A stretch of 59,626 nucleotides of DNA, filler included, from Jimgerdemannia flammicorona (Eukaryota), in NCBI GenBank assembly GCA_003990765.1. It is 3 parts of 3 records of this genome, joined end to end, with 100 filler letters (N's around TTAATTAATTAA, not from the genome) between each part and the next. Parts side by side here need not be neighbours in the genome. Positions count along the whole stretch, not along the records: positions 19,913 to 39,723 come from RBNJ01001847.1; 2 more parts are not named here. One strand, 5' to 3'. The translations under genes and the position numbers were made by a program. Shown here one piece after another: positions 3,470-57,139 of this stretch. Position 1 is the stretch's first letter; every line of letters begins with the position of its first letter. Under the pieces are notes generated by a model. That model made no database searches, was not told the origin of the DNA, and saw only the letters and a program-made list of their open reading frames with translations.

Positions 3470-3766
3470 GATGTTTCAGGACCACTCTCGATCCACCCAA
3501 AAAGTTAAAAAAAAAACTATCCGCTAGCAAGCATCGAAAATCCAGTCCTGCGCATCAAATATAAATTTGCCGAGTCAGGCTTCTCCCTACCAACCTGTGC
3601 ACGAAACCCTTCGCGCCACCCCCACCCGTCCTTCATGCAGGTTCAACGAAGAGCTCCCTCCATAATGCGCACGCTCGGAGGAATCCCCTTTATTTTTTTT
3701 CTTTCTTTTCTTTCTTTTTCTTAAAGAATATTACTTCATTTTAATTATCTAATTCGAAACCGAGTC

Positions 3767-15700: not shown

Positions 15701-18700
15701 GCGAGAGAGGCGAGGGACTGGACCTCACGGAAGATAGATTCTTGAGGCCCGACTTGCTTGAGCATTGTGATGTATTGGAAGATAATAGTAATCACATCTT
15801 CGTAGTGAACTATTATTGCAAGCGCCATGGAGGAATCCACATGATACAAATATGTGTTGGTTAGCGAGTCCTTTACGCGGAAAACCACATGCTATAGACG
15901 TTCCATTCCTCCAAGAAAAGAAACATGAGCCACTACTCACGCAACCCATCTTCGGTAAGATCCACGCTGATACGGAAGAACTCGAATCCGATTCCACCAT
16001 GGCTAGAGCCAACCTGCAAGTAATTGGCCCACCCTTTCTTCTTGAGCAGCGACAATACCGAACCTTTGCCCTCATGTCCCATCAAATGGGAAAGATATCG
16101 ACCAGGCTGCAAACGGCGGACGTAGCAAAGAAAATATCAAAATGAGTATAGAATGCTCTACATTCCGACTATGACCGCTTTACAAGTGCTACTCTGGCGG
16201 TTCTTCCAAAAATTGTGCCCTTGTGAATCCACGCTATTCACTCCATCCCTGAATCATTCTGTCACCGTTGCCCAATAAACTAGTAAATATCCATAGGGAA
16301 AGCACTTACTTGAACCCTGAATAACGGATATTGATCCGGGAACGGAAATGTCATATCCAGCATACGGACATCTTTGACGGGTTTGACGAAGATTTGCTTC
16401 TACGAAAATGTATAGTCGTTTGGTACGGACCAGTTGAGATTCTTGAGGTCAGAATCGCACGCAAATCTTGGTATGATGCATCAACCAAGCCAATCCGCCT
16501 GAACAGTGAACGCGCCTTAGCGTATGAAACTGAATCAGACGCTTGCCAGGGTATATCCGACACTCCCAACAATGTATCAAGTCTTGACATGTAACAAAAA
16601 ACGTACCATCAGCTCTTTCTCTGTCAGCGGGTGGCCCTCAAACTTCGGTGGCTCGATGCGCTTGTCGCGAATAAGGGAAAATTTTTCGACTGTCCATTCT
16701 GTCAATTGATCGAGAGATTCTAATAGTAATAATAGAATTGACGGACGATCATCAGAAGTCAGCCGTTAAAATGAATCAGTCGAATCGGGCATATACTTTT
16801 CCGTGACATATAGCCTCCTTCCTTCATCAAGTGAAATGATCCTATGTTGGTTCTCTCTAACCATCAGATCCATATAACCCAACCTCCCTTCAACTTGGCC
16901 ATGAATAAATGCATTGAATGTGCAACAAAAAATATGATGAATATGCATAACAAAACATCAAACCTCACCTCTTCCCAAAACACACAATTTCATAATATTC
17001 GCCGAATAATAGCTTTCATGGAACTTCAACAGCTCCTGGCGAATGTCAAGGCCCTGCCGCCGCGGTGATTCCCGTAACGTCTCAAGGTTACCCGTCCCAA
17101 AATGGCAGTAAGGATGAGAAGGATTGGAAAGGGATTTCTCGAGCTGGAAAACGCGCCAGTTGTCTGATTGCAAATTTTTCTTGTGCTCTGCTCATGCAAG
17201 AATAGGAGGTTTTCGTCAGAAAAAAATTGGGGTAAGGGCTAACGGTAATATGGGACACGTCGAACGAGTCCAGCCGCTGAATAAATTTCCAGACTCAGAA
17301 AAATGAAATTGGAACTCATAAATCATCCTATATGGGCTGGACTCCATCCTTATCTCGCCGCAACACATACCGTGCCCCACCATTCACACGGCTCCTCCTA
17401 CCAAACTCACCTGAATCTACTGCCCGCAACTCCCTTTCTGTGCACCCTTCCGAAAAAAGGGGTGCAATAAAGAACTGGGCGAACCGATCCAACGCGCCTT
17501 CGAGATAATCGTACGCGACCTCGAAGTAGTAATTCGTGTTCTCAAGACTAGTGAAAGCGTTCGAGTGTCCAGAGTGCTCGGACAGAAATTGATTGTAGTC
17601 ATTTTCGCGCGGGTACCGCTCTGTGCCCATAAAAAGTAGGTGTTCGCAGAAATGTGCCAGGCCTTGGAGGTCGTCCTGTGCAAAGGAAATCACAAATTAG
17701 TGCGAGAAGGAAAAAAAAAAAAAAAAATGCACAACAGAAGGCGTTGCATTGTCCACCCCATTGTAAAACACATTGGCCCATGATGCGAAACTATATCGAT
17801 CCCGTAATTATGAAAGCCTTTTCCCCATTCATATTATTCGCTAGCTATGAATTCTTCCTCGCAGTGGTCATTAAGTTGAGATCCGTGGTAGCACCCCCGC
17901 AATCTCTTTTTTTGTGTGTTTCCCGCAATCCTGATCTCCGCAGAGTCCTCCGAAGTCTCCTCAAGGAGTTAAGCGGGCCATGCCAAGCGATATAGAGCTT
18001 TTCGACAAGTATCTCCCGACATATTCAAAATAAGACACTTCGTGGTGATTTTGTTTCCCCGCCAGAAAGGACAGAAAAAATTGAAGAGAACAGAAAGAAC
18101 CAGGTATCAAAACTCACCGGATCGCTCAAATGCCCTACGTGCACATCCAATGCAGCGCTCGACTTATCGGTCTCCCGATCATGGATCAGTAGAGTCTCGA
18201 GCTGGTTCGACGCTAGTCGGATCAAACGATACTCCCGATCGTCGTTGTCAGATTTCTCGAGTGGTAACGTGTACACGTAATGTGTTCCAGAAGGGTGTTT
18301 GACCCAGCCAGGGCCACTGGGAGGTGGGGCGACGGATGTTGGGGACATGGTCACCGGGTAGCTGGGGTGGGCAGGGGTTGAGTTGGAGGCGAGGTAGGGC
18401 TGAATAGAAGAACCAGGAAAGGTGGTGACGGTGCGGAAGCGACAAAAGGGTTGAGACAGTTTAGGTCTATGAAGTGGAAAAAGTGTGTGGTCAGAAGTCC
18501 TGTTGCTGTTGGAATGACGCGTCTCGAAGTGCCCGAAAGCACGTCATCGTTGTCACTACGGAAAAGAATGGTCCGGTCTCTCACTATTTTGGAAGGTGGG
18601 GTGGCTGTGTGTGTACGCGCGGTAACTCTGATCTGACCACGCCCAAGGGTATCGGCGTCGGGGGACCAATCTTATTTTGACACGCCAGTCGCTTATCCAC

Positions 18701-19912: not shown

Positions 19913-22153
19913 TAAGCCAGGGTTTGCCTAGGATCAGGTCATGGTCTCCTAGTGGTGCTACCTCGAAATCTAAATGTTCCCAGTACTTCTGGATCTTGAG
20001 GGGAAGTTTAGCGGCAATTGAGTCAATTGGTAAGGTGGTGCCATCTGCAGTGACAACTCCACCATTCTTGCCAGCTGGTTTGGTGAGAATCTTGAGCTTG
20101 TCGATGAGGTTCTTGTTGATGAAGTTCCCAACAGCTCCGCTGTCTATGAGAATGTCTAGTTCTTGTCCCTTGACTAGACCTTTGAAAATGAGCATTGAAT
20201 TGGCTCAGTTCTCAGCTATGCTTGCAACTTTGTCAGTACTGCCAAAGCCTTTCTGATCTTGCTTGGTTGAAGATAGCTTGGTGACTTCTTTGATGACTGA
20301 TAGGGTGGCTTGCTCCAGAATGAGCTGTGCAATTCTATCTCCTTCATTGATGGTATATGGCTGGTTCTTGTAGTTGACTAGCAGGACTTGCATTTCACCT
20401 CGGAAGTCAGGGTCTATGACTTCAGCACCAATATCCAATGAGTGCTTGAAGCTGAGGCCAGATCTTGGTGCAATTCTTGCATAATGTTCCTTGGGGATTT
20501 CGACTAAAAGGCCAGTTGGAATGAGCCTTCTTTCATGTGCCGGAATAGTGACTTGTTGTACTGCTTGAAGGTCCAAACCAATGGCTCCTTCTGACTGTGC
20601 TTGAGGGATCTGAGCCTTGGGGTTGACTCGCATGAAATTGAGTACAACTTCTTGTTCAACTGGTTGATCTTGAGTGTCTTTGGACAGGACCAGGATCCTC
20701 TTTGGTTCCGCAGTTTTCTTGGGACATTTGGTTGCAATGTGACCAGGCTGACGGCAAAAGAAGCAGGCTCCAGCCTTCTTAAGGCACTCCTTTTCCTCGG
20801 GTGTAAGCTTGCCTTTCTTGCTCTTGTCAATGGTGTCTAGGTCTATGGGGGCAGGTCCAACAGTTCTGACTTTGGGTTCCTCCCTTCTGTGGTTGTTGTT
20901 GTTGTTGTTGAAAGGCGGTCTCTTCTGTTCAAAGTGGTGACCATAGGTGATGATATCAAACCTATCAGCAATTTTCATTGCTGTGTCTAGGTCCTTGGGT
21001 TCTTCTAGTTCGACACGAACTCGGGTTTGACCTTTCAAACCTCGGATGTACTTGTCAACCTTCTCATCTTCAGTGACATGTGGTAATTCTAGCAGGATTG
21101 ACAGGAATTATGCATTGTATGCTTGCACAGACTTGAGTTGTTTGATGTTTGCCAGATGGTCTCGCGCAGCCTTGGTGCTGTTGACTGGTTTGAATTGGCC
21201 TTGAATGGCATCAGAGAATTTGCCCCAGGTCTTGATTCGGCCAGAGAATCTGGTATTCTGGACATGATTTCGCCACCAGATTGCAGCATTCCCTTGGAGG
21301 AGTGTGGTGGCAAATTGGACTAGTGTTGTTTCTTCCAAATTGGTCAATTCTCCATATTGCTCCAATTGGAAAAGCCAGGCATCGGTAGACAGTCCTCCTC
21401 TTTGACCATCAAAGGTGTCAGGCTTCTGCGGCTTGATAGTGACTGCTGTCGGATGTGTTGATGTCGGTGGAGATGCAGAGGTATGAGCAGAGGCCTTGCT
21501 TTCCTTTCTTTCTAAGCATTCTTGAAGTTGGGCAATCTGAGCAAATGCAGTTTGCAAAAGACTCTCGATGGACCCAGTTGACTGGGTGGGGATTGGCTGT
21601 TCCTCTTCTTCTTCTTGCTGATGGTAAGAGGCATTGCCTGGACCATAGACATTGTATGAAGGGTTCCACCCATTGTCCTCCATAGTGTTGTGACTGATAT
21701 CTTGAGAGGTGTCTTGATAAGGCTAGGTGTAACTTCACCGCTGCTACCAAGTGTAATGGTTCTAGTTTCTAAATGAGGAAGCGACTAATTCTGGTAGTCC
21801 TAAGTAGCTCGAAGAGATACTAAGGATTCAAGTGTTCTCGAAGGGTTTCTGGGAGAAAATATTCTGAGCTTTATTCATGAGAACAAAGGGGATATTTATA
21901 CAAGATCTGAAAGAAGGATCCGGAAGGATCTGAGAAATCAAAGGAAAATGCCAAGAGGAAAGTTCTCGGCAAAGATGACAAATGATGACAAATAAAGTTC
22001 TACAAGTTTCCAGGACATTCAGTGACTAACTAAATAAGTACTAGTTAATGCTCGGTGCCAAGAAAGGATTTCTAAGCATTTGGAAAGTACCAGAAGGTCA
22101 TAGAATATTGGAGAAAGACAAAGAAAAGGAATAAACTACGCTAAAATGTTACA
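19913..22153 (-). mobile_element. Ty3/gypsy LTR retrotransposon A, 5' part only (gag-CCHC-dUTPase-protease), rest lost in gap; same family as E
   Basis: 5' LTR 21752-22153 (TG..CA), gag from ATG 21683, CFFCRQPGHIATKC knuckle, dUTPase motifs (GLDL, PRSGLS, VIDPDFRGE, GDRIAQL, GFGST), protease LIDSGA. Confidence 0.92.
21738..21749 (-). promoter_or_regulatory. Primer-binding site of element A, probably initiator tRNA-Met
   Basis: TGGTAGCAGCGG two nt after the LTR; complementary to a ...GCTACCA 3' end typical of eukaryotic tRNAi-Met; decayed copy at 45647-45658 in E. Confidence 0.75.
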
Positions 22154-25100
22154 GCAATAATGACAATAAATTTGTAGATCTCATCTCCTTCAGTGATGAC
22201 AAGGATAAAGCCCCCATGATCTTGAACTTTCTGCTCTAAGTTCTTTGTTACACTGAATAATGCCAGCACCAGCATTCTGAGGTGACACAAATTTGTACCA
22301 GCACCGGTATTTTGAGGTAGTACTGAATAATACTAGCACTGGTATTCTGATATAACACTGAATTATACCAATATCCTGAACCTATACAACCATCAGTACA
22401 GACTCTAGAACTTAGTAGTTTTAGTTATTAGAATTTATATTTAGCTTTACATCTTAGCAACCATTGAATTATATTTTGTATAAATACTCCTCTTATTTTC
22501 TCTGAAATAAAGTCAGTTCTGGTTTCACTTACACATACTTTCTTACAAGCAATCTAAGAGATAACAAGATAGTTAAAGATAAGACGTTTGAGGACTATAA
22601 GACCTTGGAAAGGTACTCCAATAAGAACTTGCTTATAACAAACTTAAGTTAGTCTAAGAGATATATCTTGAAGAGAATCTGGCATATTTGAAGGACTCAG
22701 CGACCACTACATGATAACTTGGTGCCCATTGGCTGGTGATTTAAGATGAAAAATGAACAACCTCCACAATAACTACTCTGACTACAAGAGTCACCCCTGC
22801 AAGAATTCAAGATAAGATAGAAATGTGTCCCCCACATTCTATGGATATACTACTGAAGAGTCAATTCTGACCTTTATTGAAGACTTTGAACAATTCACCA
22901 CTGTACGAGCCCTTGATGTGGATACTCAATTGGCCCTTCTACCAGTCAGCCTCAGAAGATCTGCCAGAGACAAGTTCAATGCAGCCACCATTGCTGATGC
23001 TGGTGCAGCCAAACTTGTCAACATAAAGGCCTTCTTCAGAACAACATACTATACTGAAGCAAGCTCTCAAGGATCAACTCAATATTATCTGCCAGGGACT
23101 TAGTGAAGATCCTAACTCATTCTATACCTGAATCTGCCACCAGATTGTTCTGGCTGGCTATGATGACCACCTCAAGGAACAAATAGCAGATTCAACCTTC
23201 CTTAAAGGAGTTCACCCTGAAATTGCCTTAGCAATCCAGTCTACCCCAACTGTACTGACCCTTGATCAGAAAGTGGTCTTTGCACAGAGATATTAGACTG
23301 CCAGACACCCTGCCAAACACTCAATGGAGAAAATAACTAGCATCAAGATGGAGTCATCAAAGCCAACTAGTATTATACCTGCTACAGTTGTAAACAGACA
23401 ACCAACTCCACCTACCTCCAAGATAGCCAAAGCTGACCCAGTGGAGGAACTTGCCAAGCAGGTTGCCAAGATGACTGCACACCTTGGTGATGTTGTTAGA
23501 GAAGTCCAAAGTGCCAACAGGAGACCAGTGTAGAGATTTGCAGTTACTACAGAAGAATGCAATATTACATACTTCAGATGTAGAGAAGAAGGCCACTATG
23601 CAAAGAATTTCATAACTGAAACAAGATGCAAAGCCCAACCAAGCAATACTAGCAGAACCAGAGAACAAACCAATGCAGTAGTCATCAAGGAGATTGGTGA
23701 TACTGATGATGAAGAATACTATGAGGAGCTCAAATTCTACCCGCTACTGAAGGTACCAGAACCCAGGCCAAGCCCTATGACAAGAAGAGCAACAGCAAGC
23801 CAGTTGGAAGACCAAAGAAGACCCCAGCTGTCACTATTCAAAGTAAGACCCAACCCAAGGAGATTGATCAAGACATAGAGTTAGATGAAGCTGCCCACCA
23901 AATCATTGAAGGTACTACTCCAGTCTTAGGAGAAAGTGAAAGCAAGAAGGAACAGAAACTGTGCAAGACCAAGATCCACCAGTATGATATCTACAAGGAT
24001 CTCAAGGAACAGAAGGTCAATGCTACTTTTGGACAACTAGTCAAAGTTCCTGCCTTTAGACAGCAGTTGAGAGTAGGACTTGTAACTACCACCAAGAATC
24101 AAGAGTACAAGATTGTAGAAGCTCACAATGCACAGGAAGAATGTGAGAACTCAGGTGAAGAATCCAAAGACTAGTGCAAGACATCAGCCTATACTCCATG
24201 TCAGATTGAAGACTGTATCTTTGATGCTATCATTGATACTGGTACTGGAGAATGCCTCATGAGGAAGAAGGCAATTGACTGCCTAGGCTGGGATATTGAA
24301 GAGTCCACCAAGATAGTCTATGTCACAGCAGATAGTACACAAGCTACCCCCCTTGGCAAAATCCAAGAAGTCCCCATCAAGATAGGAGGAGCTACCATCC
24401 CAGTAGATGTGATTGTTATAAGCGCCACCAACTATGATATCCTCATTGACAACCAATGGCTTCACAAGGCCAAGGCCATCATTAACCTCAATGCCCAGAA
24501 GATGCAGATCAACTATAGAGGAAGAAAGGTACAAGTCTCTATAAATGTTCACAAAGGAGTCCTACCAGACATAGAAAAAGGAGATAAAGAGGACACAGAG
24601 GTCTTCATGTACTCAGTGAACAAGAACAAGAACAAGACACCCAAGCTCACAGATGAGTAGTGGTACAACAAGATCATCAATGGGTATGCCCCTCAAGGAA
24701 GATGCCCCCATGGTACTAGGATGTACTGCTCTGAACACCTGAATGACTGCTGGTTCTATATCAGTGAAGTCAGGAAAATCCACCAACAGAAATATGAGCA
24801 AGAAGCTGCTGAAGTAAAAAGGAAAGCTGAAGAAGATGACCAGCCCCCAGAGCTTCAGGCTGACAGTAACAATGAGGAGAAACAAGAATCAGACATCACC
24901 CTCAAGATCAAGAAGTTTCACCCTGAAGCTAAGATCTCAGAATACAAGACTGAAGGAGCTATAGGAATGGATCTTGCCAGCATTCAAGATGCTACCCTCG
25001 AACCACAGACCACCACCCTACTTGGTACTGGAATTAGAGTCAAGTTGTCAGAAAACCATGCCAGAATTATCAAGACCAGGAGCAGTCTGGCCAAAAGCAA

Positions 25101-28100
25101 AATCTCAGTTGAAGGAGGAGTAATTGACTCTGATTACACCAGCGAGATCTTCCTCATAGTCAGGAATCACAACCCTACCACCCCATTTGAAGTCAAGAAG
25201 CATGATAGGATTGGTCAGATGCTGATCCACGAAATCAAGAAGTCCAAGATCATAGAAGCCATTGAACTCATCAAGACCAAGAGAGGAGAACAAGGCTTTG
25301 GATCTACTGGAAGAGGAGCCTATGCTGCCACCAAGATTACTGAACTTGAGCACAAGAAAGATAAGGACCAGAATAAGCACACATACACTATTGGAGAAAA
25401 CTTTCCCCTGGAGGAATAACTTCTCAAGATCCTGTATCAGAATGAAGGAGTACTTGCTACAGACTTCTGAGATATCCACAATCAAGAACCCAAGTACTAC
25501 CATGAAGTTGATACTAGTGATACCAAGTCCATCTACCAGAAAGCCAGACCCATACCACCTGCCTATAGAGAATGGCTGTGAGCAGAACTCAAGGAAATGG
25601 AAGAAGCTGGAATTATCAAGCAAGCTATCAGCCCCTGGGCCTCACCCATTGTCCTTGCCCTGAAGAAAGGAAGCAAGTCTGGAGAGTTTGTACCAAGACT
25701 CTGTATTGACTATAGGAAGCTCAATGCCATCACCAAGAAGGATAGGCAGCCCTTGCTGAATATTCAAGAAATCCTTACCACCCTTGGGAGTGAAGCCAAA
25801 TACTACACTACCTTGGATCTGTTCTCAGGCTTCCATCAGATTGGTCTCACTCAAGATACCAGCAAGAAACCAGCCTTCATTATACCTGATGCCACCTATA
25901 TCTACCTGTGAATGCTATTTGGAATGTACAATGCCCCAGCAAGTTTCCAGCAAATGATGAACAGAGTCTTTAGCAATGAGATTGAAAAATGGCTCTTTGT
26001 CTATATTGATGATGTGATCATCTTTAGCAACACTGCATGGGAACATATCAATTATATATAGCTAGTCCTCAAGAAGCTCAAAGAGCATGGCCTCTACATC
26101 AAGCCCAAGAAATGCAAGTTTGTAGTCCAGGAAATCACCTACCTAGGACACCTCATCAACCAGACCAGAATTCACACAGACTCCATAAAGATTGAGGCTG
26201 TTGCAACCTACCCAAGACCCAGAACAACCACAGAAGTCCATGCCTTCCTTGGACTGGCCAGCTACTACAGAAGATTCATCAAAGGATACTCCAACATTGC
26301 AGCACCCATCTATGAGCTACTGAAGAAGGAAACCAAATTTAAATGGACTAAGGAGCACCAAGAAACCTTCAATGAACTCAAGACCAGGTTGACCCAAGCA
26401 CCTATCCTCAGAAGACCAGACTGGAATCTAGAATTCATCTTGCAGACAGATGCAAGTGCTATAGGACTTGAAGCAGTCCTAGCTCAGAAGAAAGATGGAC
26501 ATAAATATGTCATCTCCTATGCAAGCCAAGGTACCTGTAGAGTAGAACAGAACTACAAGTCATGTAAGCTCAAATGCTTAGCAGTAGTTTGGGCAGTAGA
26601 TAAGTTCCACTACTACCTAGCTGAGAAATACTTTACTATTCAAACAGACCATTCTGCCCTTGCCTGGCTATTCCACACTCTGAACCCCAAAGGAATATAT
26701 GCCAGATAGATCTACAGACTACAAGAGTATGACTATACTGTCAAGCACCACTCAGAAAGAACTAATACCAATACTGATGCACTCTCAAGGACACCCTGAA
26801 ACACCCCCAACAAGACCATTCAACATGAATAAGGAGCTATACTATGGATTAATCAGCTATCTTGGGCAGTAGAAGATGCCCAACTACCTTGAACCCTGGA
26901 CAATCACCATCATCAACTGGACTTGGAAATAGTTTGAACTAGACAACACTACACTCAGAAAAGGAGGAAAGCTAGTAATACCTAAACACAAGAAGTATTA
27001 AGTAATGAATAAAGTACATGAGCAAGGATACCTAGGAGGAACCAACACATATAATAAGGCAAGAAGAACCATGTAGTGGCCCAAGATAGAAGAAGACCTG
27101 TGCCAATTTGTCAAAGGGTGTAACAAGTGCCAAAAACAGAAACAAGATCAATAAGACCAGGAACCTGGGTCATCAAGAATTGAGCCTATCCCCTTCCACC
27201 ACATTGCAATAGATATCATCAGACCACTATCAGTAACACTATCAGGAAACTACTATATTATAGTTATTGTAGACCTCTTCACCAAATAGATAGAGACAGG
27301 AGTATTACAAGAAGCCAATGCCTTCTCTATAGCTGACTTCCTGTATTAAGAAATCATCTGCTGCTACAAGACACCAAAGCAAATCACAACAGACTATGGT
27401 ACAGAATTTGTCAATAGATTCTACAAGATAATGTATCAGAAATACAAGATCCAGTACATCAAGACCACTGTGTACCACTCTCAAGGAAATGGACAGACAT
27501 AGAGAACCAACAAGACCTTCAAGAATATCCTAGCAAAGATCTCAGAGACATATGAGAATTGGGATAACTATCTCCCAACTGCCCTCTCTGTCCTATGAGA
27601 TATATGGTCACAGAGTACACACTTTACCCCAAGGGAGCTACTCTTCAGAAAAGAAGATTCTGATGGAATCTCAGCCACAAATCTAGACCTAACTTGGAGA
27701 TGGGATGATGCAGAAATCCAGAGACTATACCAAATCAGGAAGAAGACTGAAGATTACATCATCAAGTCACAAGTACTGATAAGGAAGAATGCGGAAAAGA
27801 ATCACAAGGCCCTAGAACCCATCTGAATTAGAGAAAAGGTTCTACTGTATCAAAATATGGTAGAAGCCTCATAGTCATGAAAACTGAAGCCCAAATGGGA
27901 AGGACCCTTCTATGTGCAAGATATCAAGGGAACTACCTTCTGGCTTAGAAAAATCTCAGGGACTATACTGCCTACTATGGTACATAGGAACAGACTCAAG
28001 AAGTACTATAAACCTATACAAGAGAAGTATAATGTGATGACTGCCCATGAGGTTCTAGTCTGCAAATCATAACAGCATATCCTATGGCCAGCAGGCTATC

Positions 28101-28385
28101 TGTCTGGACCATTCTCTAAGGGATACGGCACTGGCAACTACTCATCTGTAAGACTTTTGAAGTCAGAGGAGTTTGAACCATCAACTGATTGATCAAGATC
28201 AGAATTAGGCCCTTGCTCTATATGAAGGGAGCAACCCTTCACTATCATGCCAAAATACAAAGAGAAGATACCAGCCTATAAATACCACTTTTTGACCTCT
28301 TGCCAGAGGTTATGGGATTAGCAAATTTTTCAAGACTGGACCAATGAATAAGGATGCTCAAGAAGATCCTTATTCAGGAGGAAGA

Positions 28386-29822
28386 TGTAATAGTGACCTC
28401 AGAAATGATGACATCAGCAATGGAGACAGTCTTTCCTTGTAAGCCACCAGATTGGAGCACAAGAAGATTATACAGTATATGAGATAAGCAATAATGACTA
28501 ACTGTGAGTCATTGTGACCACAGTACAAGCATCCTGAGGAATATAAAAGAAGGATCAAGGAACTACAGTAACAGTAACCAACAAGACCCACTAATCCCAA
28601 AATAGCTTAAAGACTTACTATAAACAAAATGCCTGCTGCCCACTAAACCTCAAGGTCAAGGAATCACCAAGATATCTCAGTCAAGGAGAGAATGTTCTAA
28701 GACATCAGAAGAGCTATAAGGACCTGCTCAAGAAGAACTCCTAGTATCAACCTGGGTACTGGTGACTCTTATCATTATATCCTCTACTATCATAAAATGG
28801 AAACAAGAATCGCTATTGCCACCAAATACCTCCAAATGTGGCAGGAGTATGAAATAGGAAACCTCCTCTGTCAGGAGTTTCCATAGGCCAGCACTCAAGA
28901 GCTATAAGATGCCACTCCTATGGATATATATGAAATGAGAACAGCTAAGAAGATCCATCAGATCTTCAGACATGCACCATGGTCAATCCCCAACTTGGAG
29001 TATGTTAGAGTCTCAGATTTCAGAGACCTATCATCCCACCATATCAATATACTAGAAGCCAGAGTGGCTACAGAAGCCCAGTCCACCATCACCCTCAATA
29101 GTGATGAAGTAGAAGACTTCTGGCATCCTATCCTTCAGGACAACCCAGACCAATTCCTGCAAGGATTGATCTCAGTATTCTAAGGCTCAAGTATCCAGAT
29201 TAGACCTCTCCAAGACCCCATATTTATTCCCTATTTTGTGGAAGAGAATCTCATAGACTGGAGAGCTTCAGATCTCCTTGTTCCCATCACCGCCAAATGT
29301 AATGATGTCATAGCAATGATATCGTCCCATGTAATATCAAAGCACATGAAACGTATAATATACAAGATGCATGACCTATGTAACAATGACAATGAATTTG
29401 CTGATCTCATCTCCTTCAGTGACAACAAGGATGAAGCCCTCATGATTTTGAACTTTCTACTCTAAGTTCTTTATTACACTGAATAATGCCAGCACTGGTA
29501 TTCTGAGGTGACGTGAATTTGTACCAGCACTGGCATTTCGAGGTAGCACTAAATAATACCAGCACCAGTATTCTGATGTAATACTGAATTATACCAGCAT
29601 CTTGAACCTATACAACCATCAGTTCTGGTTTCACTTATATACACTTCCTTGCAAGCAATCTAAGAGATAACAAGACAGTTAAAGATAAGAAGTTTGAGAA
29701 CTATAAGATCTTAGGAAGGCACTCCAATAAGAACTTGCTTATAACAAACTTGAGTTAGTCTAAGAGATACACCTTGAAGAGAATCTGGTATATTTAAAGG
29801 ACTCAGTAACCACTATGTGACA
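28386..29822 (+). repeat. 3' LTR of element B (about 1.44 kb, contains a decayed ORF)
   Basis: Begins TGTAATAG right after purine tract AGGAGGAAGA and ends CTATGTGACA; both termini and the PPT resemble those of family C LTRs. Confidence 0.7.
28629..29465 (+). pseudogene. Decayed accessory ORF (about 279 codons) of element B, unknown function
   Basis: Single frame from ATG 28629 to TAA 29465 joining ORFs 28920-29183 and 29238-29465; internal stops are all TAA/TAG, compatible with C>T decay. Confidence 0.65.
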
Positions 29823-31348
29823 ATGTCAATAAAAATAAAAGAGAAGTTATTTATGAAAAAGGAGAATAAGTATTACTCAGTATCTAGTATCTGACTCTGA
29901 ATAATATAGACTCTAAAAAGAAGCTTAGACTCTACTATATTGGACCATTCAAGATCCTTAAAAAATATAAACTTGTTCATATAAGTTAGACCTCTCAACA
30001 ATACTAAAAGAATTTACCCAGTATTTTATATATCTCAACTTCAGTCATATATACTAAATATCTTTGAAGAAAGAACTGTGTTACCTCCAGATCTAGTAAT
30101 TATTTATCAGTAATCAGAATATAAAATAGACTACACTTAGATCACAAGAATTACTGATTTGGATAAGCTACCAAGCCCACTCAGTACTATCTTATAAAAT
30201 GGAAAGAATATTCTAACTATAATACTATCTGAGAAATAGAAGATAATCTTTTACCAAGTAGTAACTTAATACAGATATCTGATATAATGAAAATTCTGAT
30301 AGAATTTCCAAAAGACAGTTATATCTCTAAATATCCCTAATGAAGAGAGGTATAAATATTCTAAAATAATCTCATATAAATAACTTACTCTCAATATAAA
30401 TACCTAGTAATAATACTAAGAACAAACTAAGAATAAGATTGCTACTACTATTCTTATAGCTATCAATACTAATAGAATTCTACTAAACTACTTTTTGTCA
30501 ATATATAAATCTCTAAAGATCTAGATCTAAATAAAGCTCAACAATATCTTAGAAGGATCTAATATTTCCAGACTTTTTACTACTAATAAAAATTAAAGGA
30601 GTACTATAAGATAGAATATCTTATTTATCAATAAGCTACTCTCAGTGCTACCAAATAATGAGTCCACCTTTTTATTAATAACCATATCTATATTATTATC
30701 AAAAGACTCTATATTCTTTTCTGCACCTAACTATAAGTCCTTCACTACCTCTGTAGAGTATCTTCTAAGAATATTGTTAATTTAAATGATGAATAATAAA
30801 GTGATATTGTTTTTCAAGTAGTCTAGTATACTGCTCTTCAGTTTGAAAAGTATCTGGAGTTTAGTGCTAAGTCTAATAAATAGACTCAGATAAAGAAGAG
30901 AAGAATGTAATAAATTATTACATATATATCTACAAAGCTGCTGGAATTTCTAATAGAAAATTCTATGGAAATTTCTATAGAATTTTTTATAAAAATTTCA
31001 ACTAACAATCATAGTTATCTAAAATAGTATAAATATATAGATATATCTAGTATACTATATTTAGTTATAGTCTCAAATATGTATAAATACTCTCTATACT
31101 GATTTTGTTATAATCTCAGCTCTACTTTCTCTGAATTCAAGAATAAAGTAACATTCTTATTACAAAACTCTCAGATCTGACTTATTAACAATTCTAAGTC
31201 TGATCAACTTGGAATACAAGTATGGCACTTCTATCTATATAAAAATCTGAAAGCAATATCTGAACTCTACTATAACAGATAATTGGAACTCAGTACTTTC
31301 TCACAAAGACTTAGAACTTAGGACCAATAGTTAGTTGAATTATTCACA
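29823..31348 (+). mobile_element. Very decayed chromovirus 3' end F (integrase GPF module, chromodomain, PPT, LTR), host of element B
   Basis: YIGPFKI at about 29936, YLIKWKEYSNYNT at about 30188, purine tract then TGTAAT at about 30906. Confidence 0.65.
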
Positions 31349-31382
31349 ATATATTAATTCTATTAGTATATAGTTTTATTAT

Positions 31383-32789
31383 TGTAACATAGTAGATGTA
31401 TAACTATAGAAGTATGTTGGATTTCAGTATCTTAGAAACTTGATCTTCTTTGACTCTGCAGAGTCCTCAGGATGTAAGAGTGGGTAAGTTTAAAGTATAT
31501 CTACCTATAGACTTACTAGTTCTTTTGCTTTTTCTTTACTTTGAACTATTTTGATCTGAGGTTTATTTACTCTAGATACTGGGGATTTATATAAGTTTGC
31601 TAGCTATAGGGTGGCTAAATTATAACTATATTTCCTGTGAGTTACTTTTCATAAGTATTAAACTTTTAACATTTGCTAAAACTTTGACAATTGCCAAAAG
31701 TTTAATATCTGCAAAATCTTCAACATCTGTAAAGAGTTTAACATTTGTAAAAACTTTAACAGTTGTGAAATAACAATAACTGCTATTTGTAAGATTATAC
31801 TATATTAGAAATTGAGTTCAGATACTATGGTAAAATGTCTAATTTCCTTGATTTATATTTCTAATTCAGATCAACTATTACAACTTCCTCCTAAATAAGT
31901 AATTTATCTCTGAAATATCCCATTCAAACTCCCAAACTTCTATGATTTGTATCTTTTTATATTGTGTGATTTGTATTATTACATACTTCCAGTAGTATCT
32001 TTTAATATATCTAAAGTCTCCTGAGACTACTCTATGAAGATGGGCTAGAGCTGGCTCATCATTCTTGAACATCTTGTTGACTTGTTTGGTAGTTGTAATC
32101 TGAGTATGAGAGAGCTAGCACTCTCTAATCTAGTCTTCTTTTCCCATGTCTAGTCATGAGTTTAGTAGCTATCTCAATTTGAAGTATTCTTTAAACTTAA
32201 TTTGGTTCTAGTAGACTTTGAAGTGTGAGATTTATGACAAGTGTGTCTGAACTATACTCTATATACTGTCAAAGGATTCTTCTATAGTTGGTAGCTCAGT
32301 AGTATACCATAGTCTTTCTATAGCTCACTATGCAGCACTGATGATCTTGAGGGCTGTAGTAGTACTTTATTGATTAGCCATAATACTTTTTGAGTTAGTT
32401 TTGATGAATAGTAGTAGAGGTGATTGTGTCTGAGAGTTTTTGTAGCCAAAAGGTGGTTTTTTTTATATCTTATATCAGGTAAGGTTCTTCCTACTTAGGT
32501 TCCAGTTTTTATGACCATAAAGCTTCTACTATGTTCTGATATATTAAGACTTTGTCTCCTATCTTGATAATCTCTAGGGGCTTGAAAATCTTTTCTGTAT
32601 TATTTCATTATAGTATCTGTACCTTGGTTATATAATTCTTGGCCTTGTTCCTGATTTGGTATAGTCTTTATATCTCTGTATCTATATATATATTTCCATA
32701 TAGTATCTCTATTAGACAATAGGGTTCCTTGAGAACTTTCTTCTCTGAACAGCATCTCTTGAGGAATGAAATGAATACTTTATAACTAG
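31383..32789 (-). mobile_element. 3' fragment of Ty3/gypsy element C2 (LTR 31383-31882, PPT, accessory ORF, integrase C-terminus)
   Basis: Colinear diverged copy of 32790-34150. Confidence 0.85.
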
Positions 32790-35700
32790 TATAATATAGT
32801 GGATGCTTAACCTTGGAAGTATGTCAGATTTCTATATCTTGAAAACTTAATCTTCTTTGACTCTGCAGAGTCTTTAGATGCAGAGGGGTGAGTTTGAAGT
32901 ATATCTGCCTACAGACTTACTAGTTTCTTTGCTTTCTCTTTGCTTTAAACTATTTCAATCTGAGGTTTATTCACTCTAAGATACTGGGTTATTTATACAA
33001 GTTTGCTAGCTATAAGGTGGCTAAGTAATGAGTCATTTTCTGCAAGTATTAGATCTTTTAACATCTGCTAGGATTTCACTGATTACCAATTTTCTAACAT
33101 CTCCTGAATATTTGCAAATGTTAAAGTTTCTGCACTTTGCAGAATATGACTGCTATTTGTGTGGCTATACTATATCAGAAATTGGATTCAGATACTGCAA
33201 TCAAAATGTCTAATTCTCCTGATTCATATTACTAATTCAGATCAACTATCACAACTTCCTCCTGAATAGGTAATTCATCTCTGAAATATCCTATTCACTC
33301 AAACTCCCAGACTTTTACAATTTGTATCTCCTTGTACTATGCAATTTGTGCTATTACATTCTGCCAGTATTATCTCCTAATATATCCAAATTCTCCTTGA
33401 GTTATCTCTCAGAAATGAGCTAGAGCTGGCTCATCATCCTTGAATAACTTATGCACTCTCTTGGCAATTGTGATCTGAGTGTAAGAGAGCTGACATTCTC
33501 TGATCCAGTCTTCTTTTCCCATTTTTGACTTTGAATTCAGTAGTTGTCCTAGCCTGAAGTATTCCTGAAACTTGGTTCAGTTCTGGTAGGCCTTGAAGTG
33601 TGAAATTTATAACAAGTGGATCTGGACTATACTCTGGATACTATCAAAGGATTCCTCTATTGTGGGTGACTCAGCAGAACACCACTGTCTTTCTATGGCT
33701 TATTGGGCAGCACTTGTGATCTTGAGGGCAGCTGCATTACTTTATTGACTGCTCATAATACTTCTTGAGTCAGTTTTGGTAAATAGTAGTGGGGATGATT
33801 GTGCCTGAGAGTTTTTGTAGCTAAAAGGTGGTTTCTTTTATATCTTGTACAAGGTAAGGTCCTTCCCACTTAGGCTTCAGTTTTCATGACCATGAAGCTT
33901 CTATCATATTCCGATATACCAGGACTTTGTCTCCTATCTTGATAATCTTCAGAGGCTTGTGAATTTTTTTCACATTATTCCATTGTAGTATCTGCGCCTT
34001 GTTTATGTAATCTTCAGCCTTCTTCCTGATTTGGTGTAGTTTTCATATCTCCATATCCATGTGTTTCCATACAGCATCTCTATTGGATGATAGGGTTTCT
34101 TTTCTCCAAATAGCATTTCTTGAGGGGTAAAGTGGGTGCTTTGTGATCAGATATCTTGAAGAGCAGATAATGCTATTGGCAGATAGTGATCCCAGTTTTC
34201 ATAGTTATTACAGATCTTAGTGATAACATTCTTGAGAGTCTTGTTAGTCCTTTTCACCTGTCTATTTCCTTGAGGGTGATAGGCTGTGGTCTGAATATGC
34301 TAAATCTTGTACTTCTTGTAAAGAACCTCAAAGAACTGATTCATGAATTCTGTTCCTCTGTCTGTGGTTACTTACATTGGGGTCTTGAATTGGCAGATGA
34401 TTTCTTTGTAGAAGAAATCAGCAATTAACTGTGCATTGGCTTCTTTGAGGGGTCCTGCCTCTATCCATTTTATGAAGAGGTCTACAATGACAATGATGTA
34501 TCAGTTGCCAGGGTAGAGGGCCAATTACATCTATTGCAATGTAGGTAAATGGTGCTGGTTCTATATGTGATCATCTTAGGACTTAATTTCATTGATCTTG
34601 TTTCTGCTTCTGGCATTTGTCACATATCTTGACAAATTGTCTAATATCTTCCCCCATTCCTGGCCACTACATTTTTCTTCTTGCTTTATCATATGTATTG
34701 GTTCCTCCTAGATGGCCAAGTTTATGTACTGATTTCATTGCTTACTCCTTCTTGTGTTCTGGTATAACTAGTAGTTTTCCTTTCTTCAGTGTTTCTCCAT
34801 TAGTCTCAAATTGTTTTTATGTTCTATTGATAATCATTTGAGTCCATTCTTTTAGATATTGGGGCATCCTTTGCTGTCTCAGGTATGTGATGATTCTATA
34901 GTAGAGTTCTTTATTCATAATTGATTTGCTGGTTGGGAGTCCTTCAGAGTATCTGTGAGAGAGTATCTACATTGGCATTGGTTCTTTCTGGGCAGTGCAC
35001 AATGGTTATATCATATGCTTGTATGTAACTTCATGATCCATCTGGCATAGATTCCTTTGGGTTGCCCAGTGATCAGTAGTCAAGTGAGGGCTGAGTAGTC
35101 TATCTGAATGGTGAAGTGTCTTCTAGCAAGATAGTAGTGAAACTTTTCTACTACCCAGATGACTGCGAGGCACTCCAACTTGTATAATTTATATTTCTTT
35201 TCAGCTCCTCAGGTTCTATGGCTGAGGTATGTAATGACATACTCTACTTTGTCTTTCTTTTGAGCTAGGACTGCTCCTAGTCCTTGTGCACTTGTATCTG
35301 TCTGAAGGATGAATTCTTGGGTCCAGTCTGGTCTTCTAAGGATGGGTGCTTGGGTCAGTCTGACCTTGAGCTCATCGAATGCTTGTTGCTGCCTGCCCAT
35401 CTATTGGAATTTGATGTCCTTTTTGTTTAGTTCATAGATTGGGCTTATGATGTTGGAAAATCCTCTAATAAATCTATGATAATAGGAGGTGAGTCCCATG
35501 AAGGCTTGGGCTTCAGTAATGGTAATAGGTCTTGGGTATACTGCTACTGCTTATATCTTAAGAGGGTTCATATATGTTCCATCTTGATTGATGACATGAC
35601 CAAGATAGGAGATCTCAATTTCTGCAAACTTGCATTTCTTGGGCTTGATGTAAAGACCATGTTCTCTTAGCTTCTCTATTATCTGCTGGATATGCTGCAG

Positions 35701-37167
35701 ATATTCTTCAGCTGTCTTACTATAGATGATTACATTATCTATGTAAACTATCATCTATCTTTCTATATTATAGTGGAAGATTTTGTTCATCATTTGCTGG
35801 AAGCTTGCTGGTACATTGCACATTCCAAATGGCATTTACAGATAGATGTAGGTTCCATCTAGAGTTATGAAGGATGACCTTTTACTTGCTGCTTCAGTGA
35901 GACCAATTTGATAGAATCCTGAGTATAAGTCCAAGGTACTGTAATACTGTACTTCATCTCCTAGAGTTACAAGAATGTCACTGATAAGGGGCAGTGGTTG
36001 GCAATCTTTCTTAGTAATCAGATTGAGTTTTCTGTAATCAGTGCAGAGTCTTGGGGTGAATTCTCCTAGCTTGCTTCCTTTTTTCAGAGCTAATACAACT
36101 GGTGGAGCCTAAGGGCTGCTGGCTTCTTTGATACTGGCTTCTTCCATCTGCTTGATTTCTTCCCTAAGCCATTCATAGTAGACTGGTGGAATGGATCTTG
36201 CCTTCTGATAAATTGATTTGGTGTCTCCTGTGTCTACATCATGATAGTAGTATGGGGTCTTTCCTTTGATGTCTCTGAAATCTATGGCAAGGACATCCTC
36301 GAATTCATAAAGTATCTTCTTGAGTTTCTTCTTGAGTGGAAACTCATTTCTGATGATATAGCTATGCTTGTTTGTAGTTTCCTCCTTCTTGTGATCCAGT
36401 TTGGTGATCTTGGTGCTAGTGAATACTTCTCTTTCTATGGATCCAAATCCTTTTCTTCCTCTTTCTGTTTCCTCCAACTTCTTGACTTCCATGATCCTTG
36501 GCTGAAGAACTGGGAGGATCAACATCTGTGCCAGTTGGTCCTTCTTCTTGATTGGAAATAGAATTGTAGAATTGTGATTTCTAGCAATAAGTAGTATTTC
36601 TCCAATGTAATTGGAATTAATAACTCCTCCTTCAATTGTGATTTCACTCCTAGCCAGGCTGCTTCTTGTCTTGAGGATTCTGATATAGTCTTTTGAAATG
36701 GTCATTTTCAGACCAGTTACTAGTAGGGTGGTTGTCTGGGGTTCCAGTACAGTTTCCTCTACTGTGGCAATATCCATTCCAGCTGCATTTTCTGACTTGT
36801 ATTCTGATAAGACTGCATCAGAATGAATCTTCTGAATCTTGATCTTGATTTCCCCTTCTTCATCACTATCTTCAAGGAGGGCTGGTGGTTCATAATCTTC
36901 TTTCTCTATTCTCTTCTCTTCTCTTGCTTGTTTCCCAAGGGCCTTCTCTCTTCTTTGGTGGTAGATTTCCTTAATTTTACTGGTGCACTGATAATACTTA
37001 TTGATATGCTCCATACAGTACATTCAGATCCCATGGGGGCAGACTTCTTGTAGTGTATATCCTTTTGCGATCTTTTTGCACTATTCTTCTTTACTCATCT
37101 ATTCAACTTTCTTCTTCTTTTTCTGAGTGGTCACCATGTAGGCTTCCTCTTATTTGCTCTCTTGTTC
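32790..37167 (-). mobile_element. Ty3/gypsy element C1 (dUTPase-RT-RH / IN, accessory ORF, 3' LTR 32790-33253), relative of B, 5' part missing
   Basis: dUTPase (AGMDI, TRSSLA, GGVINSNYIGE, RGRKGFGS), VYIDNV, LQTDTS, GHLG..CDKCQ; PPT 33254-33263; colinear with B. Confidence 0.9.
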
Positions 37168-38450
37168 TGTAAGTATACAACCTCCAAGCTACTGAAATCA
37201 CATGTCACCCTCCAAACAAATCTGGAAATCACCTGCTTGATCACAAAGCTGAGTCAAACCAAAGTTATAGTATATGTATAAAGCTGAGTCAATATGAAGT
37301 CACAGAACACAAGATTTACACAAACAGAATCTAACCAATTAGGACCAAATGCATATATACTGAGCACCAAGATGTGTTGAAACAGAGAACCAAAACAAAC
37401 AACAACTACAACTTCTGAACATATACAAACATGACTACTGAGATCTACAACTATATCTGTGCTGATATTTGGAATACCATTGTCAACCAAGCCACACCCT
37501 CTCTACCCCTCATGAATATCTATAGTCTAGCACCCCTCTACTTTATGAAAGCCTGATGGAATGCCCTGAACATACTTAGTAAGGCCCACCAAATCAGACA
37601 AATCTCAAGCTACTATCAGATCAGCCACCTCCTAGAAGACATGATCAAACACCATCATAATACAGACATTACTCAGATGTCTCAACACCAGAAGCTCATT
37701 GCCTACAAACACAGAGAACTCTTCTATGAGTACAGCACCTTTATTCTCTGCCTTTGAGTCACTACCACTGAAATGGTTACTACTCTATCCTATGGCCAAA
37801 TCAATGACATGATACAAGAACTCAACCACAAGTACATTGAGTACATTCAGACCATAGACAGAACCTTCCTGCACTCTGATGACCAGATCCTGCAAATGCC
37901 TCAAGTTGAATATATCATGAAGAATATCTATGATATAATTCAATTTAATAAAGATGATACCAATATGACCTCAAGCCAAGGATCTCTGCCAACTCTGATC
38001 ACACCGCCAACCTTGCCAATGAACTTACAACAGTTCATAACCACATACAAGACTTATTGAGATAATGACCACTGGCATGAATACTAACCTGTGTTCACCC
38101 CCAATTACTTCAACTACAATGAAGAGACTAGAGAACACAACCTGTACCTTCAGACAACTCTCGAGATCAAACCAACCACTTCACCACCCAAGTATGAGCA
38201 ATATAAACCACAGCCACCAGCTTACTACAACCCCATGACTCATAGTGCTATAACCTATAGAAGGTATACAGACAGCGAATCTAATGAAAGTGAAGATGAT
38301 ATACCACTCCTTCACCTACCAACTCTATATCCAGCATATGAGACAGATGATGCTATTTTATGGGATGGTAATAAAGTCCCAATGTATTCAGGGCATCTCT
38401 CTCCAATACAATTCGCATTACACAAACTTCAAGCAATGGTTTTATATACA
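37168..38450 (+). mobile_element. Element D: probable LTR-like insert carrying a decayed accessory ORF (from ATG 37431)
   Basis: Abrupt TGTAAG start interrupting C1; one frame from 37431 joins ORFs 37773 and 38091; motif pattern shared with B and C accessory ORFs. Confidence 0.5.
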
Positions 38451-38453
38451 ACT

Positions 38454-39723
38454 CGGAGAAACAAACATGGGCAACACAGGCAACACAGGCAAGATGGGCA
38501 AGATGGGCAAGATGGGCAAGATGGCAAGATGGCAAGATGGGTAACATGGGCAAGACAGGCAGATGGCAAGACAGGCGACATGGGCAAAATGGGCAATATG
38601 GGCAATACGGGCAACATGAGCAACAAGGGCAACACGGGCAATACGGGCAACATGGGCAGGTAAGATAGGCAAGATGGGCAAGATAGGCAAGATGGCAAGA
38701 TGACAAGACAGGCGACATGGGCAAGATGGGCAAGACAGGCAAGACAGGCAAGATGGGCAAGACAGGCAAGATGGGCAAGATGGGCAAGATGACAAGATGG
38801 CAAGATGGGTGACATGGGCAAGATGGGCAGATGGCAAGACAGGAGACATGGGCAAGATGGGCAAAACAGGCAAAACAGGCAAAACAGGCAAAACAGGCAA
38901 AACAGGCAATACCAGCAATACTGGCAACACAGGCAGGCAATATGGGCAATACAGGCGGACAACACAGACAACATGGGCAACACAGGCAGGTAACACGGGC
39001 AATACAGGCAACACAGGCAACACGGGCAATACGGGTGGGTAAGATGGACAAGAAGGGCAAGACAGCAAGATGGGCAACATGGGCAAGATGGGCAGATGGC
39101 AAGACAGGTAATATGGGCAAGATGGACAAAACAGGCAAAACAGACAAAACAGGCAACATGGGCAACATGGGCAACATGGACAACACAGGCAACATAGGCA
39201 ACATGGGCAGGCAAGATGGGCAAGATGGGCAAGATAGGTAAGACAGGTAACACGGACAATATGGGCAAGATGGGCAAGACAGGCAATACAGGTAACATGG
39301 GCGGGCAACACAGGCAATACGGGCAACATGGGCAACATGGGCAACATGGACAACACAAGCAACACAGGTGGGTAAGACAGGCAAGATGGGCAAGATGGCA
39401 AGATGGCAACACAGGCAATATGGGCAGGCAAGACAGGCTAGATGGGTAAGACAGGAGGCACTAATAGGGGTAGGTCAGGTGCACTAGATGCCAAGTACTT
39501 GAGGTGGTTGGGGCTCACAACCCATACCCACTGGGTGGGGCAGGCCAGGTAGGAGGATCTAGTTACTCAGGTAGTGAGGTCACAACTTATACCCTAAAGG
39601 TATAAGGCTGGAAGTGGGTTGAGATTGGGGTAGAATGGGACTACTGATGTTGTATGAGGATATGTGGCATGTTATAGATAGTTAATAAATGAGTAACAAG
39701 GCTGAAAAAAAAAAAAAAAAAAA
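38454..39723 (+). mobile_element. Poly(A)-tailed non-coding retroposon P1 (VNTR + G-rich 3' end); 5' boundary approximate
   Basis: AATAAATGAGTA then poly(A) running into the gap; 3' motifs shared with P2. Confidence 0.55.
38466..39455 (+). repeat. 9-bp minisatellite (GGCAAGATG/GGCAAGACA/GGCAACATG/GGCAATACG variants) with higher-order blocks
   Basis: Directly visible GGCAA-core tandem units over about 1 kb. Confidence 0.95.
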
Positions 39724-52080: not shown

Positions 52081-52137
<57 letters not shown>

Positions 52138-52300
52138 GAGAAGTTGGCACATTTATTGATTTTTATCACTAAAGAAGAAAGATTGATACAGTTATTGATT
52201 TTTGTCACTAGAGAAGAGAGGTTGGCACAGTTATTGATTTTTATTACTAGAGAAGAGAGGTTGATACAGTTATCAATTTTTGTTACTAGAGAAGGGAGAT
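48660..52300. repeat. Tandem array of 39-bp units punctuated by a longer unit (132-bp period), interrupted by the MPP10 retrocopy
   Basis: Unit TTATTGATTTTTGTCACTAGAGAAGAGAGGTTGGTACAG and variants; spacer ATTGACTCTCACTT…GAAGTAGTCT recurs about five times. Confidence 0.93.
50035..52132 (+). pseudogene. MPP10: Processed pseudogene (retrocopy) of U3 snoRNP protein Mpp10
   Basis: ELLIEGFNHEQVWEEI, VDDAFFNLDEFN, KDWTLGGEASSKARPLNSLLEEDLEFEH; no introns, frameshifts, 3' UTR, long poly(A), 17-bp TSD GAGAAGAGAAGTTGGCA (50018-50034, 52133-52149). Confidence 0.92.
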
Positions 52301-52303
52301 AGT

Positions 52304-53156
52304 ATAGGGCATCAAGTGCTCAGTGTAGGTTACCTGCAGGTCCTCGGTGCCTGTGGTGGGGCCTTCTGGCTTTGGCGAGCTTCCCGGCAAGCGCAGTTCT
52401 GGCGTAGGTGACTGCTTTTTGGGTATTGTCGGGATGGGAGGGGAGATGGCTGTCACAGATAGGTGGAAGGGCGATTATGGTGAACCAGTAGGGTGCCAGA
52501 CTGGGGGCAGTCATCGGGGCTGGGGCAGGTGCTGCTTCAGTGGGGCCTTTTGATTGGTGCAGCGCAGTTAGGTGGTAGGTGTCACTATCAGCTTCTTTTG
52601 GCGGTCAGCGGGGTTGGGCCCCAGTCGTCAGGGGGGGTCAGGAGGCCCGAGGCTACCCATTTCAGGTGTCTTGGCTGCACTCAACTAGAACTGGGAGCTG
52701 ATATGGCAAAGTGATCGAGGTCCACAGACTTAAGTAGTGGGGTATTGGGGGTTTCCTCCCGCCTCACATATAAGTCCTTTACTCACCTTGACTGGGAGAA
52801 CCAGGCCCTACCCACCGTGTTGTGCTTTGATGAGGGTTTTTTATTTGCCTGTCATTCTCTTTGGGGTGGCAGAGGCTATTCTATTTGGCTTGGGCATGGC
52901 CTTGTACATACGTTGGGTTCTCAGGCATGTGCTTTCAGTCGTTGGCATATGGTTGGGTTTCCCCTGGTAGTAGAAAGAGCATGGTGTGCAGAATGAGGTG
53001 CAGGCTTATCAGCCCTGCTGCGCCTGGCATGGTTGAGCTGCTAGACAATAGCTAGCCTAGATTAATGGTGGGGCAGTGCTTGGTGGGTGGTGGGGGAGGG
53101 TTTTGGCCTATATAGTCTAGGTTCCCTTCCAATAAAAATCCATGGGACATGAGTCC

Positions 53157-56965: not shown

Positions 56966-57139
56966 GGTGTAGGGAAGGGTCTGGTGCCGCAGCCGAGGGA
57001 GAATTAAATTATTTTTCCAAAACAGGAAATGGCAGTCAAATGGTGTATGATGACATCACCGCGGCATACGTAAGTGATGCAACAAACCCCGTGAGTGTCT
57101 TTGCTGCTGGCTCTTCCACAAACCTTCCTCAAAATCAAT
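56966..57139. promoter_or_regulatory. 174-bp divergent (probably bidirectional) promoter between the XPB-like gene and RPN10
   Basis: Head-to-head start codons at 56965 and 57140. Confidence 0.55.

Follow-up and report, generated by a model that had tools for sequence, protein, structure and literature searches.

The long terminal repeats (LTRs) of a high-copy Ty3/gypsy retrotransposon family of the fungus Jimgerdemannia flammicorona, here termed family A, carry within their U3 region a real, formerly selected protein gene that is copied into both LTRs of the element and into solo LTRs. The copy studied lies in a window of 59,626 nucleotides, i.e., the whole stretch of DNA analyzed, which joins parts of three records of assembly GCA_003990765.1 with 100 filler letters between each part and the next, positions 19,913 to 39,723 stemming from RBNJ01001847.1. 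In this window, a polypurine tract (PPT; AGGAGGAAGA, 28376-28385, plus strand) directly precedes TGTAATAG at 28386, the start of the 3' LTR (28386..29822, plus strand, 1437 nt, TGTAA...TGACA), which ends with TGTGACA at 29822. The open reading frame (ORF) of the accessory gene occupies 28629..29465 on the plus strand and comprises 278 codons followed by TAA, five in-frame stops included, and the window copy is a pseudogene. Genes encoded in U3 occur in a few retroviruses, e.g., sag of mouse mammary tumor virus (MMTV) and, in part, nef of human immunodeficiency virus. A preliminary description of the window had proposed a gene inside a long LTR in analogy to MMTV sag, and this is supported, the analogy to sag being one of architecture alone: the layout is that of a U3 accessory gene, and the protein belongs to none of the families with which it was compared.

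A DNA search of the fungus' own genome yielded 4383 candidates, of which 40 were scored and 30 fetched, and a protein search yielded 7492. Family A is very abundant in this genome, though such candidate totals, here and for the families below, are not copy numbers. The fetched loci consist of 12 5' LTRs with unrelated flanks upstream and the primer-binding site and gag downstream, 11 3' LTRs with pol and the PPT upstream, and seven solo LTRs, six of which are bordered by an exact 4-bp target-site duplication, AT-rich targets being preferred. All 30 start at the boundary that corresponds to position 28386, as had been proposed from the window copy, and a start near 29379 is thereby ruled out; the 278-codon ORF therefore lies wholly in U3. 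The same PPT motif stands before the 3' LTR in 11/11 cases and in the sister family D, and the primer-binding site (22720..22737, plus strand, TGG, 3 nt past the LTR end) is identical after 12/12 5' LTRs. Terminal TG...CA repeats with a target-site duplication are found among the copies, the window copy having lost its 5' end. A sag-type layout, with the ORF between the PPT and the main TATA box/R region in 5', 3' and solo LTRs alike, is present in 30/30 copies, 23 of which retain the frame length and seven of which are frameshifted; three are free of internal stops. Among the 140 best-scoring places of the protein search, a sample biased to good copies, about 50 list no stop by hand count.

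The window's 3' LTR, with 1437 nt compared with 1457-1626 nt in the others (one of them ended by the end of its contig), is missing a stretch of some 115 nt, including the main TATA box and AATAAA; both signals are kept in the remnant of the 5' LTR and in the 29 other copies, the latter with a spacing of 26-27 nt. In the LTRs of families A, B, C and D, AATAAA follows 20-30 nt after the main TATA box, a spacing implying a very short R region. The remaining right part of the 5' LTR (22154..22716, plus strand) holds the last ORF codons (to 22239), the repeats, the main TATA box (22479-22486) and AATAAA (22506-22511); it appears short only because a nested minus-strand element, the LTR of which ends with TGTTACA at 22153, interrupts it at 22154. 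Most of what had been read from the window copy was borne out, i.e., the decayed ORF at 28629-29465 and, by sequence comparison, the recurrence of its last codons in the 5' remnant at 22154-22239. The placement of the ORF ahead of repeats and a TATA region holds for the 35/70-nt tandem repeats (29478..29599, plus strand), the number of which varies among copies, and fails for the main TATA box, which is deleted in the window's 3' LTR.

That the ORF evolved as a gene is shown by comparison with related families termed B to E, with the metagenome contig L087 and with a further relative, L086. Because of C-to-T damage, ratios of nonsynonymous to synonymous substitution rates (dN/dS) were derived from transversions only. 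The value for A and B was 0.34 (95% interval 0.17-0.70), and the intervals of the five other frames include 1. Values of 0.28 for A-L086, 0.34 for A-C, 0.35 for A-L087 and 0.34 for C-L087 were obtained, all with intervals below 1; the benchmark, reverse transcriptase (RT) plus RNase H of A vs. D, gave 0.17. The dN/dS check named in the preliminary description thus detects purifying selection between A, B, C, L086 and L087, though not in comparison with E. Indels present in at least two copies are in frame in 15 of 20 cases in the ORF vs. 1 of 13 in the remainder of the LTR (Fisher p 0.0002), and when the LTRs of A and B are compared by blastn, essentially the ORF part alone aligns. As 135 of the 140 stops recorded in 54 copies are at positions that encode Gln or Trp in other copies, they are attributed to later C-to-T damage. 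On the other hand, some results speak against selection. The intervals for A-E (0.72) and C-E (0.78) include 1, probably due to saturation; the within-family values for A-A (0.61, 0.33-2.03) and B-B (0.57, 0.31-1.18) are indistinguishable from 1; and indels found in single copies are mostly out of frame in the ORF (12/28 in frame), which is expected after the death of a copy.

What the preliminary description had overlooked is that the gene belongs to a family common to several Gypsy backbones unrelated to each other, within the LTR in some and outside it in others. Members of this family reside inside LTRs in families B and E; as an ORF3 ahead of the PPT, they occur in the chromovirus family C, in L087 and, distantly, in family D. 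The gene is kept at 28-66% identity across several backbones. For family B (948 candidates), 22 of 25 loci have the LTR start, 11 of them after a PPT, with the gene inside the LTR; the three loci without the start motif are left out of the B counts. In family E (4647 candidates) the gene lies inside a repeat of about 2.5 kb that starts after a B-like PPT in four loci and next to unrelated flanks in the others. The LTR ends of both B and E were placed without target-site duplications, which detracts from the assignment of their genes to LTRs. Family C (6146 candidates) has the order gag-dUT-PR-RT-RH-IN-chromo, i.e., gag, dUTPase, protease, RT, RNase H, integrase and chromodomain, and the gene end directly precedes the PPT in 21/21 segments; in L114 and L115, C elements of full length, both LTRs are 0.8 kb long and free of the ORF. 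The gene in L087 shows the same layout as in C. A family D element with a short LTR, 69% identical to A in pol, is a neighbor of the family A copy in the window (31874-36860, minus strand), with a second partial copy of a D 3' end at about 32700-31500. The RT of D is 63.5% identical to that of A, and its PPT is like that of A. The ORF3 before this PPT (33295..33756, minus strand, 153 codons) is a probable distant homolog of the N-terminal core of the gene family, its profile reaching an hhalign score of 31 (probability 31%, pairwise E 5e-4) as compared with a maximum of 18 among 30 shuffles and with 17 upon reversal. One duplicate, mis-cut D locus was left out of the counts. Another candidate, L088 (E 6e-4 over 28 residues, 10 bits in a second comparison), was dropped as a probable chance match.

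In the gene tree, for which D was left out, A and B group together (99/99), whereas in the RT tree A joins D (100/99), B joins E (100/99) and C stands apart, and this disagreement leads us to LTR swapping; in the simplest reading, A would be a D-like backbone that acquired a B-like LTR. The spacer upstream of the C gene aligns over about 300 nt with the pre-PPT region of B and E, then has a gap of some 31 nt spanning the PPT, after which a motif follows that matches nt 2-23 of the B LTR in 13-20 of 22 letters (4-7 if offset by 3 nt). This LTR-start motif is present in 17/21 C segments and the PPT motif in 0/21, the mis-cut row L163 being left out of the comparison. The C gene has probably moved out of an LTR, keeping a vestigial LTR start and losing the old tract by deletion. 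The PPT has an established role in plus-strand priming. Chromovirus C would have captured the spacer together with U3 from a B/E-like element and then lost the internal PPT, a tract that, if kept, would misprime the plus strand. A movement in the opposite direction, i.e., from a C-like place into an LTR, was considered and is reversed by the deleted PPT and vestigial LTR start of the C spacer. On the whole, we regard it as likely that the in-LTR position is the older state for A, B, C and E, with capture by C from a B/E-like element followed by loss of the internal PPT, and with A combining a B-like LTR and a D-like backbone. This history is weakened by the RT tree, which is unrooted, has nine rows and gave a long-branch warning, and by the modest homology of the D gene: if real, the pre-PPT form may be the deeper ancestor. 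A single member of the gene family is present in every element family examined, suggestive of one useful function common to all. The non-coding spacer of about 300 nt conserved in B, C and E contains a hairpin of the GGTTCGAACC type (L114 ~1914-2112; L062 ~1094-1300), for which Rfam and ARAGORN returned nothing credible.

Lying upstream of the main TATA box in the 5' LTR and far 3' in the genomic RNA, the gene needs a message of its own. A candidate promoter inside U3 is marked by a TATA box (28542..28549, plus strand) 87 nt 5' of the ATG, found at about this distance in 29/30 family A LTRs. TATA boxes placed alike, 60-90 nt before the ATG, occur in 18/22 B and 20/21 C copies (two of them shifted) as well as in L086 and L087, and family E has a TATTTAA variant in the 17/17 copies printed. 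Words resembling TATA are frequent in this DNA, which is AT-rich and deaminated, and as such argue against a promoter; for this reason the argument rests on the position of the box, which is kept among families although the flanking DNA has diverged. With good though not complete confidence, we propose a separate transcription unit that extends from this TATA box to the poly(A) signal of the LTR, such that any intact LTR could express the gene. Contigs from two sequencing runs, which may be of DNA rather than RNA and are therefore not counted as evidence, cover the LTR and not the gag next to it.

The encoded protein consists of a basic N-terminus, a predicted helical core (residues ~48-185) that includes a small beta hairpin, and an acidic, indel-rich tail ending with LNFLL. 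In the full-length A/B relatives P0003 and P0013, the first 50 residues contain 10 Lys/Arg vs. 3 Asp/Glu, and the last 70 contain 20-21 Asp/Glu. The tail motif FxDLIxF occurs in A, C, L087 and P0010 and, close to the end of the tail, LNF in A, B, C, L087 and P0010; these short motifs persist although the tail otherwise gains and loses codons freely. No cellular homolog was found among 1.84 billion representatives, the five matches being "hypothetical" at most and, where listed, on contigs of less than 5 kb. Other database searches returned 6 of 333 and 9 of 5408 candidates, unnamed proteins on short contigs where listed, a search of viral contigs revealed no relative, and the top Atlas matches are unnamed clusters that serve as leads only, one of them mostly from Mucoromycota (score 0.85).

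We consider it slightly less than an even chance, yet the best of the available explanations, that the product is a soluble nuclear regulator. Judging from anatomy and analogy, it would act in trans on the element's own chromatin, as an LTR activator or anti-silencing factor, with the basic/helical part binding nucleic acid and the acidic-hydrophobic tail recruiting host factors. Several results do not favor this proposal. The N-terminus of P0010 is less basic (4 Lys/Arg, 4 Asp/Glu), Pfam gave no family at E values up to 1 nor, in a second search, at 0.1, Sag and Nef homology included, and a profile search of PDB sequences gave 0 matches. The structure models are of low confidence (predicted local distance difference test, pLDDT, 48), so that the blanks of Foldseek against viral and PDB structures (none at E 0.001) and of a wide VIA comparison (best Z 3.6) prove little. 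The Arg-rich N-terminus and the helical core would also suit a factor acting on the element's RNA, by export in the manner of Rev or CERV, by packaging or by protection from small-RNA silencing. The position of the gene at the 3' end of the RNA in all families agrees with such a role, and CERV, in the available part of its description, provides the precedent of a Gypsy element able to encode an export factor (PMC10309623). As neither Pfam nor PDB nor Foldseek matched an RNA-binding family or fold, and as the long acidic tail would better suit recruitment of host proteins, this role appears possible at best and clearly second to the nuclear regulator. The survival of short motifs in a tail of otherwise variable codons could also point to a Nef-like cytoplasmic adaptor that binds proteins of the trafficking or autophagy machinery and serves to protect particles, or to move them, within the hypha. 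In its favor, the motifs resemble Atg8-interacting and clathrin-box motifs. Against it, the same pattern is fitted by acidic activation domains, B has the motif in part only, and the examined part of E did not show it; an adaptor is unlikely.

Still less can be said for the remaining explanations. The gene occupies the env position in C and D, as would a membrane protein for spread between cells. With the maximal 19-residue hydropathy at 0.57-0.97 and thus below 1.0 in 5/5 proteins, there is no transmembrane segment, nor is there a viral relative, and in family A the gene lies inside the LTR rather than between pol and the 3' LTR, the env-like place of the plant element ORFs known as aORF-3S, which is occupied in C and D alone; an env-like protein is therefore highly improbable. 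A captured host gene, or a chance frame carried neutrally in the LTR, could account for within-family dN/dS intervals that include 1. It is made very unlikely by the frame-specific purifying selection between families, by the in-frame indels, by the identity retained across backbones and by the lack of a cellular homolog in the search described above.

Sag is a membrane glycoprotein, foamy-virus Tas is an acidic transactivator with an internal promoter, and lentiviral Nef overlaps U3. Like Tas/Bet and Nef, the gene of family A is a 3' accessory gene; unlike in these cases, where the overlap with U3 is partial or nil, it lies fully in U3, and no homology was shown. A Tas-like reading of its product would draw on the charge pattern and on helices predicted with low confidence alone. 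The published systems are compared here as described in the available parts of the sources. MMTV sag lies mostly in U3, is present in solo LTRs, has a dN/dS of 0.29 across dead copies and counts a U3 promoter among those described (PMC4667437). The family A gene resembles it in U3 position, solo-LTR carriage, purifying selection (0.28-0.35 here) and a candidate promoter inside U3 and differs in that sag belongs to a vertebrate betaretrovirus and the present gene to env-less Ty3/gypsy elements, and in that no likeness in sequence, fold (low-confidence models here) or membrane topology is apparent. Additional ORFs (aORFs) of LTR retrotransposons include plant aORF-3S/3R, gene23 of Grande, whose product is nuclear and which has a promoter of its own, and those of Botrytis Boty (PMC7264820). 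With these our gene shares the 3' position, occurrence in most copies and the lack of a cellular homolog, C and D having the sense pre-LTR layout. Whereas aORFs are described as internal (PMC7264820), the gene lies wholly in U3 in three families, in sense orientation and without transmembrane segments. The ORF3 modules of bdelloid rotifers likewise comprise one ORF3 type across unrelated retroelement lineages with dUTPase-bearing Gypsy backbones; theirs, however, are recognizable enzymes or env-like proteins located between pol and LTR and typically made from spliced RNA (PMC5408684). PosPlaTy3-5 and elements of Phanerochaete and Tuber are fungal Gypsy elements that, like family A, have their dUTPase between protease and RT; the available text describes no LTR-borne gene for them, and a figure legend mentions an additional ORF of unknown function (PMC2864245). 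Nothing on LTR-borne genes is contained in the available parts of PMC3248453, PMC6696364 and 10.1101/2021.04.13.439636, and no published description of a gene inside the LTR of a fungal retrotransposon was found in a literature coverage that is incomplete and extends to articles without their supplements.

According to Pfam, the backbone of family A has protease, dUTPase, RT, RNase H and integrase in the Ty3/gypsy order (PR-RT-RH-IN). In the window, a decayed gag, the CCHC motif of which is seen in copy L092, protease, dUTPase (24925-25311), RT and RNase H occupy 22823..26832 on the plus strand and are followed in a separate frame by integrase (26825..28072, plus strand). Pfam detected no chromodomain after integrase in the window copy and L092, as opposed to family C (L109), where it is present. 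The integrase ATG overlaps the RNase H stop (ATGAATAA, 26825-26832) in three elements, i.e., the window copy, L092 and the neighboring D element, in which integrase may be translated by reinitiation. The spacer at 28073..28375 (plus strand) is non-coding, with near-invariant stops in all six frames of 25 copies; this rules out 28070-28385 as a C-terminal extension of integrase. Its interpretation as a decayed D-type ORF3 is unsupported, as in three tests, one of them mis-cut, it was outscored by 170, 15 and 2 of 200 shuffles. A Cys/His-rich pol segment without Pfam match (W-Y-x-x-I-x-x-G-Y-A-P...C-P-H...Y-C-x-E-H) is located between protease and dUTPase in A (window ~24660-24800) and between dUTPase and protease in chromovirus C (L109). 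The nested Gypsy element at 19913-22153 (minus strand) has an LTR of about 425 nt, gag with CCHC, and a dUTPase before protease, gag/dUTPase running into the contig gap.

Damage to the copies consists of C-to-T changes that affect 53% of CpG sites vs. 11-14% of CpA, 8-10% of CpC and 2-3% of CpT; with CpG most affected, classical repeat-induced point mutation of the CpA type is ruled out as the source. The observed/expected ratio of CpG is 0.05 in the element, as compared with a value near 1 in host genes close by. Between the two LTRs of L092 there are 116 transitions and 2 transversions, so that divergence of copies reflects mostly deamination and allows no simple dating. Host genes in the window encode, according to Pfam, an AMP-binding enzyme (2270-3475), a heme peroxidase (8332-9630) and an M16 peptidase (15115-15891), and an XPB helicase gene (55085-57055, minus strand) has an unusually long open exon. 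The host XPB scores 400 bits against yeast Rad25 vs. 355 against the next XPB group, in weak agreement with a fungal host. Arrays of 9-nt and 39-nt tandem repeats are present at 38450-39490, 48700-50140 and 52090-52340, and a 9-nt array like that of the window flanks a family C insertion in L099.

LTRs of retrotransposons are usually taken as non-coding and are masked by annotation tools. A selected gene that lies wholly in U3 outlives its element in solo LTRs and allows the history of the LTRs to be traced by alignment, as with sag in betaretroviruses; in the present case it exposes swapping of LTRs among lineages and the probable exit of a gene from an LTR with loss of the old PPT. As a compact, soluble and unnamed accessory protein with undamaged natural versions, its product is a test case for the role of extra ORFs in retrotransposons. 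More speculatively, the LTRs might be self-contained cassettes, thousands of which, solo LTRs included, would make a trans-acting activator or anti-silencing protein off a promoter of their own and which unrelated Gypsy backbones would trade by LTR swap or capture. If true, the protein of such cassettes would counter host CpG methylation and help to explain the swollen genome of the fungus.
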